DNA of 64,000 nt from Candidatus Calditenuaceae archaeon (GCA_025058225.1 JANXEE010000015.1:37808-101807); one strand, 5' to 3'. Positions 10,555 through 32,649 are shown, counted from the first letter of the stretch. Notes: generated by a model from the letters alone, not told the origin. Numbers and translations are program-made.

Positions 10555-10979
10555 ACCGTTCCATTTAGAGGCCAGAGGTTATACTTTGCTGGTCCACGGA
10601 CTCGATCCCTGAACGTGGCTGGAGCGCGCATCGGGGAGAGGCGTACCAGCTCGATCGATGCAACGCCATCTGTCAGGCGGCGCTCGATGGGTCGGAAGAG
10701 TTTTGCCGGTGGGCTAGTTCGGGGAGGAGGCGACGGACCTGTGGCGCGAGTCCCTACACGATCTCAGGCAGCCGCGGAGGGACTACGAGATCGGGGTTAC
10801 GGCGTCTCGGCCTTCCTCGACCACAAGGCGGCCACGAAGGCGCTAACACGCCGGCGCAGGTCGAAGCGTTCAGGGAGGGGAAGACGGTGGTCCGGGAGTC
10901 GGTGACGGAGGAGATCAGGGTCAGGCTCTGAGCTCCATCGAATGGCTGGATCATCGCCGAGCCATCCTGTTCCTGCAGA

Positions 10980-11076
10980 TGGGGCCGGCCGGATTTGAAC
11001 CGGCGACCTCCCGGGCCCTTGCCGAGGCCCTCGCGGTCCCAAGCCGGGCGTCCACTCCATGCTGGACTACGGCCCC
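10980..11076 (-). tRNA. tRNA-Pro(UGG) with an intron of about 22 nt at the anticodon loop
   Basis: Minus-strand read: GGGGCCG UA GUCC AGCAUGGAGU GGAC G CCCGG CUUGGGA[CCGCGAGGGCCUCGGCAAGGGC]CCGGG AGGUC GCCGG UUCAAAU CCGGC CGGCCCC A. The precursor is 97 nt and about 75 nt after intron removal. Confidence 0.85.
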
Positions 11077-11176
11077 CCGACGACCTCCTCCGGATTCGCT
11101 AAATACCTTCGCCGGCGGCGGGGCGGACGCTGATCACCAAGAGACCGTTTTTACTGAGGGCGTCAGGAGGAACCCG

Positions 11177-11839
11177 ATGCGGGTCTACCTGCTCTCGCAC
11201 GTCCTGAGGGAGGACGACCCTGTCTACCCGGGGACGCAGCCGCTGAGGCTCGAGCAGGTGAGGAGCATAGCCCGAGGGGACACCTCGAACTCCTGGAGGA
11301 TGAGCTCTGGGAACCACGTCGGGACGCACGTCGACGCGCCGAACCACTTCGACGACTCAGGACTCAGGGTCGAGGACCTGAGGGTCGAGGACCTCGTGAT
11401 CGAGCGCGGACTGGTACTGGACGTCCCTGAGGAGCCGGGAGGCGTGATCGAGGTCGAGGACCTGAGGCCCCACGAGCGGCTGATCGGGAAGTGCGGGATG
11501 CTGATGGTCAGGACCGGCCTGCAGGCCTACAGAAGGTCCGACCCCTCCAGGTACTCGGGCGAAGGGGTGTCGCTCCACCCTGAGGCCGCCTCTTACATAG
11601 CCGGCTTCGGGACCGTGAGGGCCTTCGGGATCGACGCGATCAGCATCAGCTCGCCGCTCAGGAGGGAGATGGGTAGGGAGGCCCACAGGAGGCTGCTGAC
11701 CTCGAGGAGGTTCCTGATAGTCGAGGACATGGACCTCGCTGGGAAGCCGGAGAGCTACGACGTCGTCGTGGTCGCGCCGCTCAGGGTCGAGAGGGTCGAC
11801 GGCGCGCCCTGCACGGTCATCGGGATCATGCTCGGCTGA
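11177..11839 (+). CDS. Cyclase family protein (kynurenine formamidase-like fold)
   Basis: The motif HVGTHVDAPNHF (HxGTHxDxPxH) is present. The start is set at ATG 11177 because the listed ORF start (10979) overlaps tRNA-Pro. About 220 aa. Confidence 0.75.
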   Translation: MRVYLLSHVLREDDPVYPGTQPLRLEQVRSIARGDTSNSWRMSSGNHVGTHVDAPNHFDDSGLRVEDLRVEDLVIERGLVLDVPEEPGGVIEVEDLRPHERLIGKCGMLMVRTGLQAYRRSDPSRYSGEGVSLHPEAASYIAGFGTVRAFGIDAISISSPLRREMGREAHRRLLTSRRFLIVEDMDLAGKPESYDVVVVAPLRVERVDGAPCTVIGIMLG

Positions 11840-26584: not shown

Positions 26585-27016
26585 TTGAGCAAGGTGGAGA
26601 GAATCGAGAACCTGAACCCTAGTTCTAGGGGCGTGAACTTGGTCGCAAAGGTCGTCTCGAAGTCTGAGCCAAGAGTTGTCAGCAGCCAGTACGACGACGC
26701 GAACCACAAGTTGTCCATCGCTACGATAGCCGACGGGAGCGGCGCTATCTCGCTGGTCCTTTGGGACGACGACATCGATAAAGTGGAGGTGGGTAGTACC
26801 GTTAAGATAACGAACGCTTACGTTAAGGTCTTCAAGGGAAAGATGCAACTGAACCTCGGAAGGTACGGCAGCATCGAGACCGTCTCTGAGGAGATCGGTG
26901 ACGTCAACCTCGAGAACAACCTCTCCGAGAAGACCGTACCAGCCGGTGGGTTCTTCAACCCCTCTCGATCTAGGACTCCTAGAAGAAGGTCCGACCGGTT
27001 TAGGTCTGAGCTCTGA
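26585..27016 (+). CDS. ssb: Single-stranded DNA-binding protein, crenarchaeal single-OB type with a basic flexible tail
   Basis: 143 aa. IENLNPSSRGVNLVAKVVSKSE ... IATIADGSGAISLVLWDD ... VKITNAYVKVFKGKMQLNLG parallels Saccharolobus SSB. It has an R/S/P-rich C-terminal tail. TTG start (GTG 4 codons later is possible). Confidence 0.8.
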   Translation: MSKVERIENLNPSSRGVNLVAKVVSKSEPRVVSSQYDDANHKLSIATIADGSGAISLVLWDDDIDKVEVGSTVKITNAYVKVFKGKMQLNLGRYGSIETVSEEIGDVNLENNLSEKTVPAGGFFNPSRSRTPRRRSDRFRSEL

Positions 27017-27053
27017 GAGCTATTTTATCAAAGACCTCGAATCTAAACTTACC

Positions 27054-27060
27054 TTTTTTT
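27054..27060 (+). terminator. Oligo-T tract (T7) downstream of ssb, a candidate archaeal intrinsic terminator
   Basis: ACCTTTTTTTAAG lies 38 nt after the ssb stop, in an AT-rich spacer between convergent genes. Confidence 0.4.
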
Positions 27061-27092
27061 AAGTTTGTCGCCCGGCGTTAGAACCGCAGGTC

Positions 27093-28424
27093 TTAGTCCT
27101 TGGACGGTCTCCCCGGTCTGACCAATAGGAGGCCGTTCCGTTTTCCGACGACCGTGACCTCATCGCCCTTCTTGACCTCCTCAACCGCGATAGCCTTCCT
27201 GTACTCACCCCCGATCACCACGTAACCGACCGAACCTGAAGCGATGTCCTCCGCGGCCCTCCCGTACTCCTCCAGAGCCATCTGAAGCGTCTTCCGCCTA
27301 GTAACTCTGGCCACCTTGTAAATGATGAAACCCGCGAACGCGCCGGCGAAGGTTCCCACCAGTATCACGCTTGTCATGGCCTCCTCAAGCCAAGTCTGTG
27401 CGATGTAGATCACCCCGGGCGGTGACCTGATGAGGAGTATCGAACCGAGCACCATTAAACCGATGCCGAACGGGAGCGCGATAAGCGTCCCCCCGGTGTA
27501 GATCTCGTATAGTATCAAGACCGATCCTAGAATTATGATACCTAGCCCAACGAGGTTCACGCTGAACCCTTGTCCCACAAGTCCAAGCAGTATCAGTATT
27601 CCCCCCACCAGCTCGGTACCGATGCCGGGGTTGGTCAGTCCTACGATCAGTATGAGGAAACCTAGTGACGTTAGGAGCGTAGAGAGTATCGGGTCGCTGA
27701 GGAAGTGAAGAACTTCAGACCTCACGTCCTTCGAAACTCTCTCCACCACAGCACCCCTCAAGTACAGCGTTGCCTCGCCTCCAAGCCTCTTTACGACCCT
27801 GCCGTGCGCCTTCTCCAGGAGATCACCCACGTCATTAGCGACTAAGTCTATCACTCCTCTGTTAAGCGCCGCATCGGGCCCCAGATTGTCGTTGTGTGTC
27901 ACGAACCTCGCCGCTTGAGTCTCGTTACGGCCGTGAACCCTCGCCATGGTCCTCATCTTCTCGACCAGGAAGTTGATCAGCTTGGGGTCCTCCGAGGGCA
28001 CGCCGTTGACTACCGGTTGAGCGGATCCTATTATCGTGTAAGGCGCCATCACCGCGAGGTCTGCTGCCATGAGGATGTAGGTCCCTGCGGAGAGCGCCTG
28101 TGCGCCTGAGGGGTAGACGAACACGATAACAGGTGTGGGTGACGACATTATCGCGTCGACTATTGTCAGCGTCGGGTCTCCGAGTCCACCGAACGTATTG
28201 ATCGTTATGATCACCGCGTCATAGAAGTTCGATGTTGAGAGGAACTGTACGATCCACTCGGCGATGGCTGTCGAGATGTAACCCTGGACCTCCAGCAGGG
28301 CGACGCGCGGTCTCGGTTGGGATTGAGCTGAGACGAAGTTGAACGCCAGTACGAGCAGGAAGATCAGCAGGAGTACCTGGGCTGACCTCTTGCCTCTACT
28401 GGGATTCTCCCTTCTTAATCTCAT
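27093..28424 (-). CDS. NfeD-family membrane-bound serine protease (ClpP-class N-domain, multi-TM middle, C-terminal OB/NfeD domain)
   Basis: 443 aa. VIITINTFGGL ... SGAQALSAGTYILMAADLAVMAPYTIIGSAQPV matches the PH1510-type protease domain. About 5 TM helices and a C-terminal OB (VVIGGEYRKAIAVEEVKKGDEVTVVG). Confidence 0.85.
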   Translation of the reverse strand: MRLRRENPSRGKRSAQVLLLIFLLVLAFNFVSAQSQPRPRVALLEVQGYISTAIAEWIVQFLSTSNFYDAVIITINTFGGLGDPTLTIVDAIMSSPTPVIVFVYPSGAQALSAGTYILMAADLAVMAPYTIIGSAQPVVNGVPSEDPKLINFLVEKMRTMARVHGRNETQAARFVTHNDNLGPDAALNRGVIDLVANDVGDLLEKAHGRVVKRLGGEATLYLRGAVVERVSKDVRSEVLHFLSDPILSTLLTSLGFLILIVGLTNPGIGTELVGGILILLGLVGQGFSVNLVGLGIIILGSVLILYEIYTGGTLIALPFGIGLMVLGSILLIRSPPGVIYIAQTWLEEAMTSVILVGTFAGAFAGFIIYKVARVTRRKTLQMALEEYGRAAEDIASGSVGYVVIGGEYRKAIAVEEVKKGDEVTVVGKRNGLLLVRPGRPSKD

Positions 28425-29232
28425 GTCCCGCTACTCCGGCGGCAGTTGCTATCACTCCCCCAATTTCGCGGCCCTCCGTGACTATGATCAGGTTCTTCTC
28501 CCTCGCGATCTCAGTCCAGGTCTGGAGCTCCCTGAGCCTCAGTGCTATCGGGTTCGCTGCGTAGGCCATCGCGGCCTCTGCCATCTTCTGGGCCGCGAGG
28601 TACTCGCCCTCTGCCATGATCACCCTGCTCCTCCTCTCCCTCTCGGCCTCGGCCTGCTTCGCGATCGCCCTCTGCATGTCGGCTGGGAGCGCCACGTCCC
28701 TTATCGCGACCGCGGTTATCTTCACGCCCCAAGGCTCCGTTGCCTCGTCGAGTATCCGCTGGATCCGGACGTTGAGCTCGTCCCTCTTGGTGAGGAGGTC
28801 GTCCAGCTCGACTTGGCCTATCACGTCCCTTAGCGTCGTCATCGACAGCATGCTCGAAGCCATCAGGAAGTCCCTCACCCTCAGAACTGCTGCCTGCGGG
28901 TCCTGGACCCTCATGAAGACCACAGCGTCGACCTCAACCGTGACGTTGTCCTTGGTAACGATCTTCTGCTTCGGGACGTCCAGCGAGACGATCCTGAGGT
29001 CTATCACCCTCGGAGAGTCGATGATCGGTATGAGGAATATCAGTCCCGGCCCCTTTATGCCTATCATCCGGCCTAACCTGAACACGACGACCCTCTCGTA
29101 TTCTTTCACGACCCTTATCGCGGCCCTCAGGAGCGCCAGGACTATTATCACAAGTATCAGTAACCCGAATAGCGTTCCGACACCAACTTGTAACGCGAAC
29201 GTCATCTTTTCGGAATTATAACTCACGAGCAC
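28396..29232 (-). CDS. Stomatin/SPFH (band 7) protein
   Basis: 278 aa with an N-terminal hairpin anchor. VKEYERVVVFRLGR ... GPGLIFLIPIID ... VPKQKIVTKDNVTVEVDAVVFMRV, plus a coiled-coil AEAERERR region. The 3' end overlaps nfeD by 29 nt. Confidence 0.9.
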   Translation of the reverse strand: MLVSYNSEKMTFALQVGVGTLFGLLILVIIVLALLRAAIRVVKEYERVVVFRLGRMIGIKGPGLIFLIPIIDSPRVIDLRIVSLDVPKQKIVTKDNVTVEVDAVVFMRVQDPQAAVLRVRDFLMASSMLSMTTLRDVIGQVELDDLLTKRDELNVRIQRILDEATEPWGVKITAVAIRDVALPADMQRAIAKQAEAERERRSRVIMAEGEYLAAQKMAEAAMAYAANPIALRLRELQTWTEIAREKNLIIVTEGREIGGVIATAAGVAGHEIKKGESQ

Positions 29233-29263: not shown

Positions 29264-30700
29264 TTAGCCAGAAGTCGCAGCGCCCTCCTTCCGTACGATC
29301 CTGCGTCTGGTCTCGCCCCGCGTCAGAAGACATGAGTCCAGTACCCTGAAGGTCATCGGCAGGTAACTGAAGGCTTTACCCCATACTAGGACCTGTCCCT
29401 TCTCGAGGTTTGGGAGTATCGCCCTCAGGGTCTCAGCGTCCACGTCGAGGTTCCTAGCGAGGTGTTCTATGTCTGAGCCGTTGCGCAGGTTGAAGGCGAA
29501 TACGTTATCGGCCTGTCTGTAGATCAGGGCAGGTATCGAGTCGGGCTGATTCGTGATGAGCACCGTTGAGATGCCTATGTGCCTCATCCTCGTCACGACG
29601 TCCTCCCAGTAGGTCTCCCTCAGGTACAGGTGCGCCTCCTCCGCGAAGAGTATCAGCGGATCGAGCTCCCCGGAGAAGAGCTTCTCTCTGAGGCAACTCA
29701 ACACGTACTCCACCAGTATCCTCCTCTGCAGGGAGCTGAGGCAGCTCATGTCGAGCACCACCAACCTGCCGTCCTCGGTCGAGAGGGCTTCGAGAAGTTT
29801 TTCGTCAAGGGTCGCTTCGTCGGAGAATAGGCCTGATGCTTCGAGCGTTGAGAGTCTGTTGAGGATCGCGTCCCTCACCGACTCGTTCATCGGTGCTGTG
29901 GACACGACCCTGTGCAACGACCTGAAGCTAAGTCTACCCCTCTCCCTCGCGTCCCTGCAGGCCCTCAGAAGCTCCCTCAGGCTGGTCTGTGGAAGGCCGA
30001 GCGCAAAAGTCATGACGTCCGCGAGCACCTCCTGTGAGACCTTGGAGAGCGGTATGAGGTAGTCTACCCCGGGCGACAGCGTGATGAGCCTGTTGTTGAC
30101 GTAGCTTTGACCTCCGTCCTTCGTAACCCCGAGGGAGACGTACTCTCCGTTCAGGTCGAACACCAGCACCACGTAGCCGATGGTGGCCAGAGAGGTCGCA
30201 AGAAGTTTAGCCAGGTGAGACTTACCCGATTCCTTCCTTCCCGTGATGATCGTGACGCTGCCCTCTACGTCCCTCGGGTCGATCAGCACCTCTTCTCCTA
30301 TCTGAACGAGTGTCTCTCTGGCCCTAGGCTGCGTTCCGATTATCTCATGAGGTGATGCCTTCCTGACCTTAGTACCGTACCTGGAGGGAAGGGAGATGGA
30401 GGGACAGCCGATCACCTTCCTGAGCTTCGTGATCACGAGCCTCGAGTCCCTAATCGCCCTCACGTGGGACTCCACGTCCATCGGATCGTATCTGATCAGA
30501 CCCCCCAGCGTGTCCGAAGTGAGATCCCGCAGGGTCTCCTCAAGAGTCCCGGGGACGTCGGCGTACTCAACGTCTATCACCTGAAGGACGAGCGTGCTGT
30601 TGCCGTCGGAGGCCAATACGTATTCTCCCCTTTCCAGGTCGAGATCGCGCCCCAACGCCATGAGCTCCACTCTGTCTCCGACCTTCCGATAGATCCTCAT
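29264..30700 (-). CDS. HerA-like hexameric ATPase/helicase (HAS-barrel plus FtsK/HerA-type P-loop)
   Basis: 478 aa. N-terminal barrel (GEYVLASDGNSTLVLQVIDV), Walker A ITGRKESGKSHLAK, VLVFDLNGEY, Walker B-type LILFAEEAHLYL, ISTVLITNQPDSIP. Confidence 0.8.
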   Translation of the reverse strand: MRIYRKVGDRVELMALGRDLDLERGEYVLASDGNSTLVLQVIDVEYADVPGTLEETLRDLTSDTLGGLIRYDPMDVESHVRAIRDSRLVITKLRKVIGCPSISLPSRYGTKVRKASPHEIIGTQPRARETLVQIGEEVLIDPRDVEGSVTIITGRKESGKSHLAKLLATSLATIGYVVLVFDLNGEYVSLGVTKDGGQSYVNNRLITLSPGVDYLIPLSKVSQEVLADVMTFALGLPQTSLRELLRACRDARERGRLSFRSLHRVVSTAPMNESVRDAILNRLSTLEASGLFSDEATLDEKLLEALSTEDGRLVVLDMSCLSSLQRRILVEYVLSCLREKLFSGELDPLILFAEEAHLYLRETYWEDVVTRMRHIGISTVLITNQPDSIPALIYRQADNVFAFNLRNGSDIEHLARNLDVDAETLRAILPNLEKGQVLVWGKAFSYLPMTFRVLDSCLLTRGETRRRIVRKEGAATSG

Positions 30701-31623
30701 GTCCCATCAAAGGGAGATAGCACCGCAGCCCTAACGTTGAGGGCCTGTAACGCGTCAACGCCGAGCTTCCGCGTCAACTGCGACCTTAGCGCTGAGATCT
30801 CCGACCAGCCCTGTCTAGAGTATGCGTGGGCGATGGTAAGCGTCTCCGGATAACCGGAGATAAGGACGTCGCTAGATATCAGGTCGCTGAGCGTCTCCTT
30901 CCACCTTCTCACCGACCAGACGTCAACCCTCAGAGGCAGGCCATCGGGCGATAACTTCGAAAGCGTCACCACCGGACGGTCCTCCCTCACCACCAAGGCC
31001 ACCTCCTTTAACCCAGTCAGTTGTCTCTGAAGGCCTTGCAGCTTCAGTGCCAATAGGCTCGACTTCGTAACGCCGATCAAGTCCTTACCGGTGGAGGACT
31101 CCTGGACGGCCCGCTCGACTTTCGTGAGCGGGGAGTCGAGGAGCAGCAGCTCGGCGTCGGTGTAGGTCGCCGCATAGACTTGAAGGGAGCGCTCGAACCA
31201 CCTGAGCTCGCGTAAGATGGCTGACTCTCCACCCACGTCATCGAGTCCGTCAAGCGGCACGTACTTCGGCACCGGACCGAACACCGTCACCTCGAGCTTG
31301 TCGTCGGACCTCCTCACCACCACACCCTTCAGGGAGATCAGCGCACCAGACCCCCAGAGGCCCGCCTTGATCACCGAGGCGTCGACCGCAGCCAACCTCC
31401 TTTCAACTCCTGGTTCCAGCTCAACGACATCGCGGACCCTCACGTCGGTCAGCTGATGGAGGTCCTCGTTGCCGTCATCAGTCGCCAGCACGACCGGCTG
31501 AACTTCACGCCCCCTCCTCGGGAAGGACAGAAGGCACTCCTCCACAATATTCATAAATAGTGGTGCGTCCTCTTGAAGGTTGATGCGGCCCATGATGTCC
31601 ATCATATTGGACCAGTCTCTCAT
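30697..31623 (-). CDS. NurA-like nuclease (RNase H-fold; assigned from motif pattern only)
   Basis: 308 aa. ATGA overlap with the HerA-like gene. Candidate catalytic motifs lie in NurA order: LAAVDASV, ILRELRWFERS, LLLLDSPL, SGYPETLTIAHAYS. Confidence 0.6.
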   Translation of the reverse strand: MRDWSNMMDIMGRINLQEDAPLFMNIVEECLLSFPRRGREVQPVVLATDDGNEDLHQLTDVRVRDVVELEPGVERRLAAVDASVIKAGLWGSGALISLKGVVVRRSDDKLEVTVFGPVPKYVPLDGLDDVGGESAILRELRWFERSLQVYAATYTDAELLLLDSPLTKVERAVQESSTGKDLIGVTKSSLLALKLQGLQRQLTGLKEVALVVREDRPVVTLSKLSPDGLPLRVDVWSVRRWKETLSDLISSDVLISGYPETLTIAHAYSRQGWSEISALRSQLTRKLGVDALQALNVRAAVLSPFDGT

Positions 31624-31670
31624 GAACCATCAATTGATTCAACATCGGTATTTAATAAATCTATATTCAG
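31624..31670. promoter_or_regulatory. AT-rich divergent promoter spacer with TATA-like boxes
   Basis: A 47-nt gap, ACCATCAATTGATTCAACATCGGTATTTAATAAATCTATATTCAGG, lies between divergent starts. The spacing implies short or absent 5' leaders on both sides. Confidence 0.4.
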
Positions 31671-32147
31671 GTGAGGCCGATGTTTCAGGAAAATTCAGCT
31701 GAAAAAGTCAAGGTGAGGCTCAAGGTCGGCACCTATGAGGTCGAGATTGAGGCCGGTCTGGACCAGATCGAGGAGGGGGTGAGGAGGGTCGTTGAGGCCC
31801 TCAGAGCAGAGGAGGGTGCGGCCGTTCAGCGCGCGGTGAAGGATCAGGAGCGGGTCAGGCCCCAGACGTGCAGGCAGGTGATTGAGAAGCTGGTGGCAGA
31901 GGGTTTCTTCGCTGAACCCAGGGCCCTGTCCGACGTTACTAGGGAGGTTGCGAGGAGGGGTTACGGGTTCGACTCGACTGCGGTCGGACACGTGCTCTTG
32001 GATCTGGTGAGAGAGGAGAAACTCGTGAGGGAGGGCGCACCGAGGAGGTACGTCTACGTCGCGCCGTTGATGCCTCCATCGGCTGACGTCACAACCTCGT
32101 CCGCTCGCCAAGCCTCTCAACTAGAGCCTGAAGGCCGTGCTTCGTGA
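31671..32147 (+). CDS. Hypothetical protein: small N-terminal beta/alpha module plus C-terminal winged-helix-like domain
   Basis: 158 aa. KVKVRLKVGTYEVEIEAGLDQIEEGVRRVVEAL, then IEKLVAEGFF ... LSDVTREVARRGYGFDSTAVGHVLLDLVREEKLVREG. The low-complexity tail overlaps the convergent gene. Confidence 0.5.
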   Translation: MRPMFQENSAEKVKVRLKVGTYEVEIEAGLDQIEEGVRRVVEALRAEEGAAVQRAVKDQERVRPQTCRQVIEKLVAEGFFAEPRALSDVTREVARRGYGFDSTAVGHVLLDLVREEKLVREGAPRRYVYVAPLMPPSADVTTSSARQASQLEPEGRAS

Positions 32148-32649
32148 TCTCGTAGTCCCCTCGCTCAGCGCTCTTCACGTAACCTGATCTCTTGAGTTCT
32201 GTCAGGGCCGCTGTTAGCGTCCCCCTCTTCAAGCCCAAGGCCTCGGAGAGCGCCTTGAGCGGGACGGCCGATTGCTCCCTTAGTCCTAGGACGTTCTCCA
32301 GCCACTTGGTCGCCAGTAGTGCGAGTATCTGGTCGGCAGCGGGGAAGCTGTGCACTGTCGGCTTATGTACGAATCCGATGGACCTGTCGTAGACCACGTA
32401 ACCTTCGAGCGCTTTTATCACCTCCTCAGCGGAGACGTTGACGGCCAGACGCTTCGCGAGCGAGTAGGTAGGCAGGACCTTATCGAAGAACGCATTCACC
32501 GCCCTGATCACGCCCTCCGGATCGCCTTCGATTGAGGTCTGAAAGTTTTGGTGCTCGATGGTGACCCTGATCCTCTGATCGCTGGCAGACACGTTATCCT
32601 GTCGTGGCTCCGTTATTAGAAAGTTGTGCGGCCGGCATCGACGGAGCAT
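32089..32649 (-). CDS. Hypothetical protein with the same architecture (N-terminal beta/alpha module plus C-terminal wHTH)
   Basis: 186 aa. IRVTIEHQNFQTSIEGDPEGVIRAVNAFFDKV, then LKALSEALGLKRGTLTAALTELKRSGYVKSAERGDYEITKHG (MarR/ArsR-like wHTH). The start codon is uncertain. Confidence 0.5.
   Translation of the reverse strand: MLRRCRPHNFLITEPRQDNVSASDQRIRVTIEHQNFQTSIEGDPEGVIRAVNAFFDKVLPTYSLAKRLAVNVSAEEVIKALEGYVVYDRSIGFVHKPTVHSFPAADQILALLATKWLENVLGLREQSAVPLKALSEALGLKRGTLTAALTELKRSGYVKSAERGDYEITKHGLQALVERLGERTRL

Follow-up and report, generated by a model that had tools for sequence, protein, structure and literature searches.

The HerA-NurA pair is essential in thermophilic archaea where this has been tested, and, to our knowledge, its targeting and regulation outside the Mre11-Rad50 operon are poorly understood. 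A stretch of 64,000 nucleotides (here called the window) from Candidatus Calditenuaceae archaeon (GCA_025058225.1, JANXEE010000015.1:37808-101807) carries a stand-alone nurA-herA-like pair beside two genes for small winged-helix proteins, P158 and a winged helix-turn-helix (wHTH) protein. The source is a hot-spring metagenome-assembled genome (MAG) of the order Caldarchaeales ("Aigarchaeota"), labelled Nitrososphaerota/Thaumarchaeota. Is this four-gene cassette the end-resection pair of its lineage, a defense module, or a separate machine with DNA-binding partners of its own? We favor, with moderate confidence, an ancient second copy of HerA-NurA, inherited vertically in the class Nitrososphaeria within a fixed cassette that includes two to three small paralogs, and forming a core chromosomal module of the repair or recombination type rather than a mobile defense island.

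A divergent NurA-family protein and a HerA-family ATPase

An initial annotation of the locus, made from the sequence alone, described four open reading frames (ORFs) and read two of them as a NurA-like protein and a HerA-type ATPase. All four ORFs, every motif that it quoted, and the ATGA overlap of nurA and herA lie where it placed them. The 308-amino-acid (aa) translation contains AAVDAS, ELRWFERS, LLLLDSP, and GYPETLTIAHAYS; the 478-aa translation contains GRKESGKS, VFDLNGEY, FAEEAHLY, and ITNQPDS; and the small-protein translations carry the quoted stretches VKVRLKVGTYEVEIEAG and IRVTIEHQNFQTSIEGD.

A profile search of 1.84 billion representatives identified 197 relatives of the 308-aa protein. 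Pfam NurA (PF09376) is matched by 52 of 62 aligned relatives (best E = 4.6e-14), and the family profile matches Sulfolobus NurA (2ygk; E = 3.2e-5) in an alignment that pairs LLDGSL with ILMDGSL and GYPETLRLAH with GYPFPLLKAH, the motifs of D163 and H266. Residues D81, D163, and H266 are invariant and E144 is nearly invariant across the 62 sequences. By order, D81, E144, D163, and H266 correspond to the catalytic residues D51, E105, D126, and H411 of Pyrococcus NurA (PMC3300031), and the motif context also matches. Members from Nitrosocaldus and Conexivisphaerales are labelled by NCBI as "DNA double-strand break repair nuclease NurA." The 308-aa sequence alone has no match in the PDB. Two further results weigh against the assignment: the query alone scores 20.4 bits in Pfam NurA against a cut-off of 21 (E = 3.9e-4), over residues 223 to 270 only, and an AlphaFold2 model built on only 4 sequences has a predicted local distance difference test (pLDDT) score of 35.6, unusable for judging an RNase H/PIWI-like NurA fold. 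By sequence profile we file the 308-aa protein as a divergent NurA, in line with the initial reading.

The assignment of the 478-aa protein to the HerA-family ATPases also stands. The single sequence matches the Pfam DUF87/HerA central domain (E = 2.3e-13, 51.2 bits against a cut-off of 23.2), and a profile of 40 orthologs has its best match in Sulfolobus HerA (4d2i; E = 2.6e-18, query residues 108 to 472 to chain residues 94 to 471), which outscores the anti-phage HerAs in the search with that profile. GRKESGKS and LFAEEAH are invariant in the 40 orthologs. Over all related loci, ortholog identity is 35 to 86%; in more distant Caldarchaeales, identity to the window HerA is 35 to 47%. When the single sequence is compared with solved structures, HerA-like matches are confined to the C-terminal half. 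The NCBIfam equivalogs for repair HerA (NF040937 and NF040819) miss their cut-off widely (29.1 bits against 800), and orthologs from Nitrosocaldus, Conexivisphaerales, and Caldarchaeum score 16 to 28 bits against the NCBIfam HerA equivalogs. PADLOC HerA models match the protein at up to 7e-17. On the other side of the balance, Pfam gives no HAS-barrel match at E ≤ 1 and the 4d2i alignment begins only at residue 108, which leaves residues 1 to 107 unassigned and makes the HAS-barrel of the initial annotation conjectural; further, the best PADLOC match is the defense-system ATPase model mad8 (1.9e-22).

The stop of nurA and the start of herA share the same 4-nucleotide (nt) overlap in the window and in three closely related loci (L003, L005, and L006), a sign of translational coupling between the two genes.

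The cassette is conserved across the class Nitrososphaeria

Related loci were sought by scanning one genome per species with 12 NurA-like query sequences. The NurA-like gene is present in 48 species genomes, all of them Caldarchaeales, and practically all loci with sufficient flanking sequence show the order wHTH(+), P158(-), NurA(+), HerA(+). About 55 loci in all, from Caldarchaeales, Nitrosocaldus, Conexivisphaerales, and Nitrososphaerales, carry this cassette, in many cases enlarged by a third small paralog; the same five-gene layout is seen in one Nitrososphaerales MAG and in one MAG labelled Bathyarchaeota. The recurrence of one gene order in so many related loci means that the arrangement is not due to chance, and its distribution across orders indicates that the module is as old as the class. 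In more distant Caldarchaeales, P158 is 42 to 55% identical to the window protein and NurA 25 to 35%; across Caldarchaeales the figures are 40 to 55% and 25 to 32%, so that the small protein is more conserved than the nuclease. In line with the four-gene set of the initial annotation, the small genes are conserved neighbors of the pair, retained in the 48 Caldarchaeales genomes and in Nitrosocaldus, Conexivisphaerales, and Nitrososphaerales while the flanks change.

The claimed lack of linkage to Mre11-Rad50 holds as well: no Mre11 or Rad50 family recurs within 8 to 10 kb of the cassette in the roughly 55 loci. The window contains just two ORFs of at least 700 aa, annotated in relatives as a Fer4/CCG protein and a molybdopterin dehydrogenase, and in none of the loci does a family of Rad50 size recur near the cassette. 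Nor do cas, methylase, toxin, or integrase genes appear as recurring neighbors in the related loci, none of which adjoins cas or mobile-element genes. This class-wide conservation bears out the proposal of a separate module with its own wHTH partners; its separateness from the canonical pair rests on Nitrosocaldus cavascurensis, as described below.

The flanks vary while the cassette stays. Those of the window (NaPRT, stomatin/NfeD, and a single-stranded DNA-binding protein [SSB]-like OB-fold protein) occur only in its closest relatives, and GatD/GatE lie near the cassette in 17 loci. In 21 to 22 loci, herA is directly followed by ogg (Ogg-HhH, 3e-55), an RsmB/F-type methyltransferase gene, and a gene for a PUA protein (e.g., L009:10182-12243). 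In another 21 loci the gene directly after herA is CdvB-like, with a weak Snf7 match and a C-terminal winged helix (e.g., L022:9574-11417), and in 16 of these 21 a Vps4/CdvC gene (MIT, AAA, and Vps4_C) comes next. In one Conexivisphaerales cassette, the distal P158 paralog and the wHTH gene are separated by a gene of 376 aa (L057:7877-9007) that has a Cas12f1-like_TNB (TnpB-type) domain and looks like an IS200/605-type insertion; the rest of that cassette is intact.

A second HerA-NurA pair in Nitrosocaldus cavascurensis

The 2018 paper on N. cavascurensis lists one nurA (NCAV_1103) next to herA (NCAV_1104), mre11 and rad50 (NCAV_1257/1258), and an extra HerA (NCAV_1723), with the tags lysA NCAV_1712, HerA NCAV_1723, PII NCAV_1724, and glyoxalase NCAV_1725. 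The Nitrosocaldus locus in our set (L055) reads ornithine/diaminopimelate decarboxylase ... GatD, GatE, three small genes, NurA, HerA, P-II, and glyoxalase. Because this gene order matches the run of tags from lysA to HerA, PII, and glyoxalase, the cassette HerA is by synteny NCAV_1723 and not NCAV_1104; the adjacent NurA was not listed in 2018. Thus, in N. cavascurensis the cassette stands beside NCAV_1103/1104 and mre11/rad50 as a separate pair.

A broader distribution is suggested by Abby et al. 2020, who reconstruct two codistributed HerA/NurA family pairs for the ancestors of ammonia-oxidizing archaea (AOA). One pair is universal, alongside rad50 and mre11; the ancestor of Nitrosopumilales and Nitrosotaleales lost the other. 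The reconstructed loss fits the fact that the cassette family is rare in databases and occurs in Nitrosocaldales and Nitrososphaerales, and the cassette probably represents families 76G-FAM000368/76G-FAM003221.

Several points temper this conclusion. The equation with the families of Abby et al. is made from synteny and distribution rather than from sequence, coverage of the window's own genome is 64 kb, and the evidence for another pair comes from a different order; the cassette is a second pair at least in N. cavascurensis. No extra HerA or NurA paralog was found in the 64-kb window or in about 0.9 Mb of related loci.

The alternative that survives best is that the cassette is the canonical and only HerA-NurA end-resection pair of its lineage, divergent and moved off mre11-rad50, with the small genes as ordinary local transcription factors. 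We initially favored an only pair from the NCBI naming and the single listed nurA, and dropped it on the synteny of NCAV_1723 and the two family pairs of Abby et al.; we now consider it unlikely. Canonical Sulfolobus HerA and NurA are the best matches of both family profiles among solved structures, the NCBI name of the Nitrosocaldus and Conexivisphaerales members is that of the repair nuclease, housekeeping genes surround the cassette, each locus set has a single copy, an 8-oxoguanine glycosylase gene lies directly downstream in 22 loci, and the evidence for another pair comes from outside Caldarchaeales. However, the cassette HerA of N. cavascurensis is the extra NCAV_1723, beside a separate arCOG-typical pair (NCAV_1103/1104), and two family pairs are reconstructed for AOA ancestors. 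Further, two to three conserved paralogous small proteins exceed the needs of a simple autoregulator, and P158 is more conserved than NurA itself.

The genomic context argues against a defense or mobile module

The initial annotation also raised a defense, plasmid/virus-control, or variable-island module, and this part of it did not hold up. The neighbors of the cassette are housekeeping genes (NaPRT, stomatin/NfeD, GatD/GatE, ogg, and cdvB/cdvC), its divergence tracks taxonomy, and its G+C content is ordinary. No relatives of the cassette were found in IMG/VR or in phage and plasmid collections. In PADLOC, the NurA-like protein and P158 have no match, and the complete systems HerA-Sir2, HerA-DUF4297, and MADS are not matched, the ATPase alone being recognized; the wHTH protein matches only the generic wHTH parts of CasR, Csa3, and CARF models, at E ≥ 2.6e-4. 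Gene tables of the window's relatives and of more distant loci list no Cas families, and a literature search on MADS/mad8 returned nothing relevant.

We therefore doubt, more strongly, a chromosomally fixed defense or plasmid/virus-control system in which a HerA-type ATPase would drive NurA against foreign DNA and the winged-helix proteins would act as sensors or specificity factors. HerA-family ATPases do serve in anti-phage systems, the best PADLOC match is mad8, followed by several HerA models, anti-phage HerA complexes are among the PDB matches, and other archaea have CRISPR-associated HerA/NurA paralog pairs. Yet beyond generic wHTH domains none of the other three proteins matches a defense model, the recurring neighbors include none of the gene types named above, and the mobile-element collections and G+C content give no sign of mobility; a position conserved and vertically inherited throughout a class is unlike that of defense islands.

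That the pair is a DNA pump which segregates or resolves chromosomes at division, linked to the Cdv machinery, is very improbable: an FtsK-like pump was the original proposal for HerA, and a CdvB-like gene directly follows herA in 21 Caldarchaeales loci with Vps4/CdvC in 16, but this adjacency is found in one subclade only, ogg/RsmB or stomatin/NfeD taking that place in others, and a partner nuclease whose catalytic site is intact suits DNA degradation better than segregation.

Small winged-helix proteins of the cassette

P158 belongs to no family in Pfam, NCBIfam, PADLOC, or PHROGs and has no sequence match in the PDB; its family comprises 238 protein-database clusters, all "hypothetical." An AlphaFold2 model built from 121 sequences shows a winged helix at residues 61 to 127 (pLDDT 82 to 91), preceded by a hairpin (residues 9 to 26) and a long helix (residues 30 to 55) of low confidence (pLDDT about 50 to 60). 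The recognition helix and wing are invariant in the family alignment. The Foldseek comparison proposed for P158 supported the winged helix but pointed to no function, the matches being generic winged helices only. The top match, the winged helix of Hop2 (2mh2; E = 1.4e-3), was rejected as a functional clue on this ground, and a RecX-like similarity (weak matches at E = 0.017 and 0.66) was judged compositional.

The wHTH protein matches Pfam Fe_dep_repress (4.4e-6) as well as MarR/HTH_24 and similar families over residues 116 to 170, consistent with a generic winged helix-turn-helix; like P158, it has no dedicated Pfam family. The initial annotation gave the two small proteins the same layout, correctly, because profile-profile comparison finds their N-terminal beta-beta-alpha modules to be homologous (P158 against the wHTH protein, A5: hhalign probability 91.6%, E = 8e-7); a winged helix is present in both.

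Within the cassette, the small-protein family has undergone repeated duplication. In most Caldarchaeales the wHTH gene has a paralog in tandem (A6; A5 against A6, hhalign 99.8%), found, for example, at L019:6335-6811 and L022:5437-5907. Nitrosocaldus and Conexivisphaerales have a second P158-family paralog instead, the distal gene matching the P158 profile at 1e-11 to 4.5e-14 (L055:8258-8788 and L057:7142-7693), and the window's clade and Calditenuis have one P158 and one wHTH protein only. The number of these proteins, their paralogy, their shared N-terminal module, and the strong conservation of P158 hint that they may be hetero-oligomeric DNA-recognition partners.

A palindromic element in the divergent spacer

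The spacer between nurA and the P158 gene was described initially as 47 nt long and AT rich. Its AT richness is clear with either start of P158, and its length depends on the start chosen: 47 nt at 28% G+C from GTG, but 56 nt at 36% G+C from the favored ATG at 31680, against a window average of 60%. It contains a TATA-like element (ATTTAATAAA, 31650-31659) and GGTGAGG (31670-31676) ahead of the P158 ATG. A 10-bp palindrome, ATCAATTGAT (31629-31638), sits between the TATA-like element and the ATG of nurA, directly before the latter. This palindrome and the TATA-like ATTTAATAA are kept in the window, L003, L005, and L006, while the remaining spacer bases vary. ATCAATTGAT occurs once in the window, which alone is no more than expected by chance.

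In the rest of the class, the nurA/P158 spacer carries TTGCGCAA or GCTCAAnTTGAGC abutting the TATA box (ATTTATAAGCA). The class-wide consensus is TTG[C/A]GCAAcATTTATAAGCA, with a short form TTG[C/A]GCAA followed by the TATA box. The composite pattern is present in the spacer of 38 of about 50 nonredundant loci, including Nitrosocaldus, Conexivisphaerales, and Nitrososphaerales, with one other match in about 850 kb. Ten of ten exact matches to TTGCGCAAC lie in the spacer, as do 22 of the 26 matches to the 13-nt palindrome GCTCAAnTTGAGC. A search upstream of the wHTH genes yielded no conserved motif.

Conservation of noncoding sequence at class depth suggests a conserved DNA-binding protein. P158, with its invariant recognition helix and wing, is a candidate binder; the wHTH protein or a global factor could also be the one. 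Two considerations count against a dedicated operator: the window's clade has lost the class-wide motif and has ATCAATTGAT in its place, and a palindrome abutting the TATA box could be in part a strong B recognition element (BRE)/TATA promoter, or could be bound by a global regulator that has nothing to do with the cassette.

The window spacer also contains an 8-nt perfect inverted repeat, AACATCGG / CCGATGTT (31641-31648 and 31677-31684, arms 28 nt apart), which brackets the TATA-like element and covers the P158 ATG with its second arm. It could be a chance occurrence or a small regulatory hairpin.

Proposed role of the cassette

For the ancient second HerA-NurA copy that we favor, homology to characterized enzymes suggests how the pair would work. 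NurA and HerA would be made from one translationally coupled transcript; HerA would act as an ATP-driven ring translocase feeding DNA into a NurA dimer, and NurA would cut through its D-E-D-H metal site as a two-metal nuclease. Such a combination would degrade or resect DNA ends. The gene arrangement suggests that the pair is tied to its own winged-helix proteins and not to the Mre11-Rad50 operon, and that at least one small protein probably binds the spacer palindrome near the TATA box, so that it would control the nurA-herA operon together with its own gene. From their conservation and duplication, the small proteins may in addition serve the enzyme pair as partners in DNA recognition.

A more specific version is tentative: beyond a repressor role, the small proteins could be physical DNA-recognition or loading subunits, hetero-oligomers joined through the N-terminal module, that fill the place of Mre11-Rad50 in a second HerA-NurA machine. 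The result would be a complex new to the literature, acting on DNA ends or structures, kept in thermophilic and terrestrial Nitrososphaeria and autoregulated by the class-wide palindromic operator.

The enzyme families are already known, and the second pair is already listed, without discussion, in supplementary tables. A limited full-text literature search returned no paper on winged-helix partners of HerA-NurA in Thaumarchaeota, and, as far as such searches show, neither the fixed cassette nor the new family of small proteins nor the operator-like element shared across the class has been described. A second divergent HerA-NurA kept through the history of a class with two to three unnamed winged-helix proteins and an operator-like element can be tested at three points: the promoter element, the proteins that might bind it, and the possible partners in a complex. 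It could account for the presence of two resection-type machines in these archaea and the loss of one in marine ammonia oxidizers. The annotation of the NurA partner and the small proteins, "hypothetical" in the Caldarchaeales records examined, is corrected here.

Gene calls and neighboring features

The coordinates of the cassette are collected in Table 1. ORFs of the sizes first reported for the small proteins do exist (P158, 31671-32147 on the plus strand, 158 aa; wHTH, 32089-32649 on the minus strand, 186 aa), but gene calls in the source and related assemblies, together with family alignments, favor shorter products. For P158 the favored start is the ATG at 31680 (155 aa), preceded by GGTGAGG, over the GTG at 31671; for the wHTH protein it is the ATG at 32592 (167 aa) over the ATG at 32649.

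Table 1. Features of the nurA-herA cassette (window positions unless a locus is named)
Feature	Position	Strand	Basis or content
HerA-family hexameric-type P-loop ATPase, 478 aa	29264..30700	-	Walker A GRKESGKS, Walker B-like LFAEEAH; Pfam DUF87
Divergent NurA-family nuclease (predicted), 308 aa	30697..31623	-	Putative catalytic D81, E144, D163, H266
nurA/herA ATGA stop/start overlap	30697..30700	-	TCAT on the plus strand, ATGA on the coding strand
AT-rich divergent spacer, nurA to P158 gene	31624..31679	.	TATA-like element, palindrome, GGTGAGG
P158, unnamed family, 155 aa	31680..32147	+	Beta-hairpin and helix N-terminal, winged helix C-terminal
wHTH protein, 167 aa	32089..32592	-	Beta-beta-alpha module, middle helical region, C-terminal winged helix-turn-helix
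Class-wide palindrome, examples	L019:7745-7775, L055:9957-9975, L057:10016-10035, L059 spacer	L059 on reverse strand	Pattern match

The convergent 3' ends of the P158 and wHTH genes overlap by 59 bp (window 32089-32147), and the same holds for sister genomes (L003, 9477-9535); loci farther removed have an overlap of at most a few bases. The overlap could give rise to antisense interference. Directly downstream of herA (26585-29232), a stomatin/Band_7 gene overlaps a gene for an NfeD membrane protease-like protein and is followed by the gene for a 143-aa SSB-like OB-fold protein, a stretch kept next to herA in the closest relatives only. Farther away, ARAGORN identifies a tRNA-Pro(TGG) of 97 nt on the minus strand (10980-11076), overlapping the start of a plus-strand ATG ORF (10979-11839); an archaeal intron is suggested, since 97 nt is long for a tRNA.

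Comparison with known systems

The bacterial anti-phage HerA systems (Sir2-HerA and DUF4297-HerA; PDB 8wiv, 8j4u, 8xau, and 9c1m) share the HerA-type ATPase core, with similarity mostly in the C-terminal half of the ATPase. They differ from the cassette in their effector, which is Sir2 or DUF4297 rather than NurA, and the cassette lies outside defense islands and has no relatives among the mobile elements searched.

Thermoproteales and other archaea have CRISPR-associated pairs of HerA/NurA paralogs (Bernick 2012; Vestergaard 2014, PMC3973734), likewise stand-alone and additional to the repair operon. Compared by context rather than by sequence, they differ in that the cassette has no cas or CRISPR context in the window or related loci, sits in a housekeeping neighborhood, and has small winged-helix proteins as partners.

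The second families of AOA (76G-FAM000368/76G-FAM003221, NCAV_1723) are probably the same genes, given that synteny and distribution match. The papers list them only as a putative homologous recombination helicase and nuclease; the small winged-helix genes, the cassette, and the promoter element are absent from the passages and tables consulted.

The canonical HerA-NurA (Sulfolobus 4D2I and 2YGK; Pyrococcus NurA) belongs to the same families, with the D-E-D-H and Walker motifs and similar sizes; in both systems the two genes are adjacent and coupled, and the canonical proteins are the best solved-structure matches for both cassette profiles. Unlike the canonical proteins, the cassette HerA falls far below the NCBIfam equivalog cut-offs, and its NurA is borderline in Pfam. 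In contrast to the herA-mre11-rad50-nurA operon, the cassette never adjoins mre11-rad50 in about 55 loci and always comes with two to three small winged-helix proteins and with a palindromic element conserved in the promoter, and in N. cavascurensis it coexists with a more typical nurA-herA.

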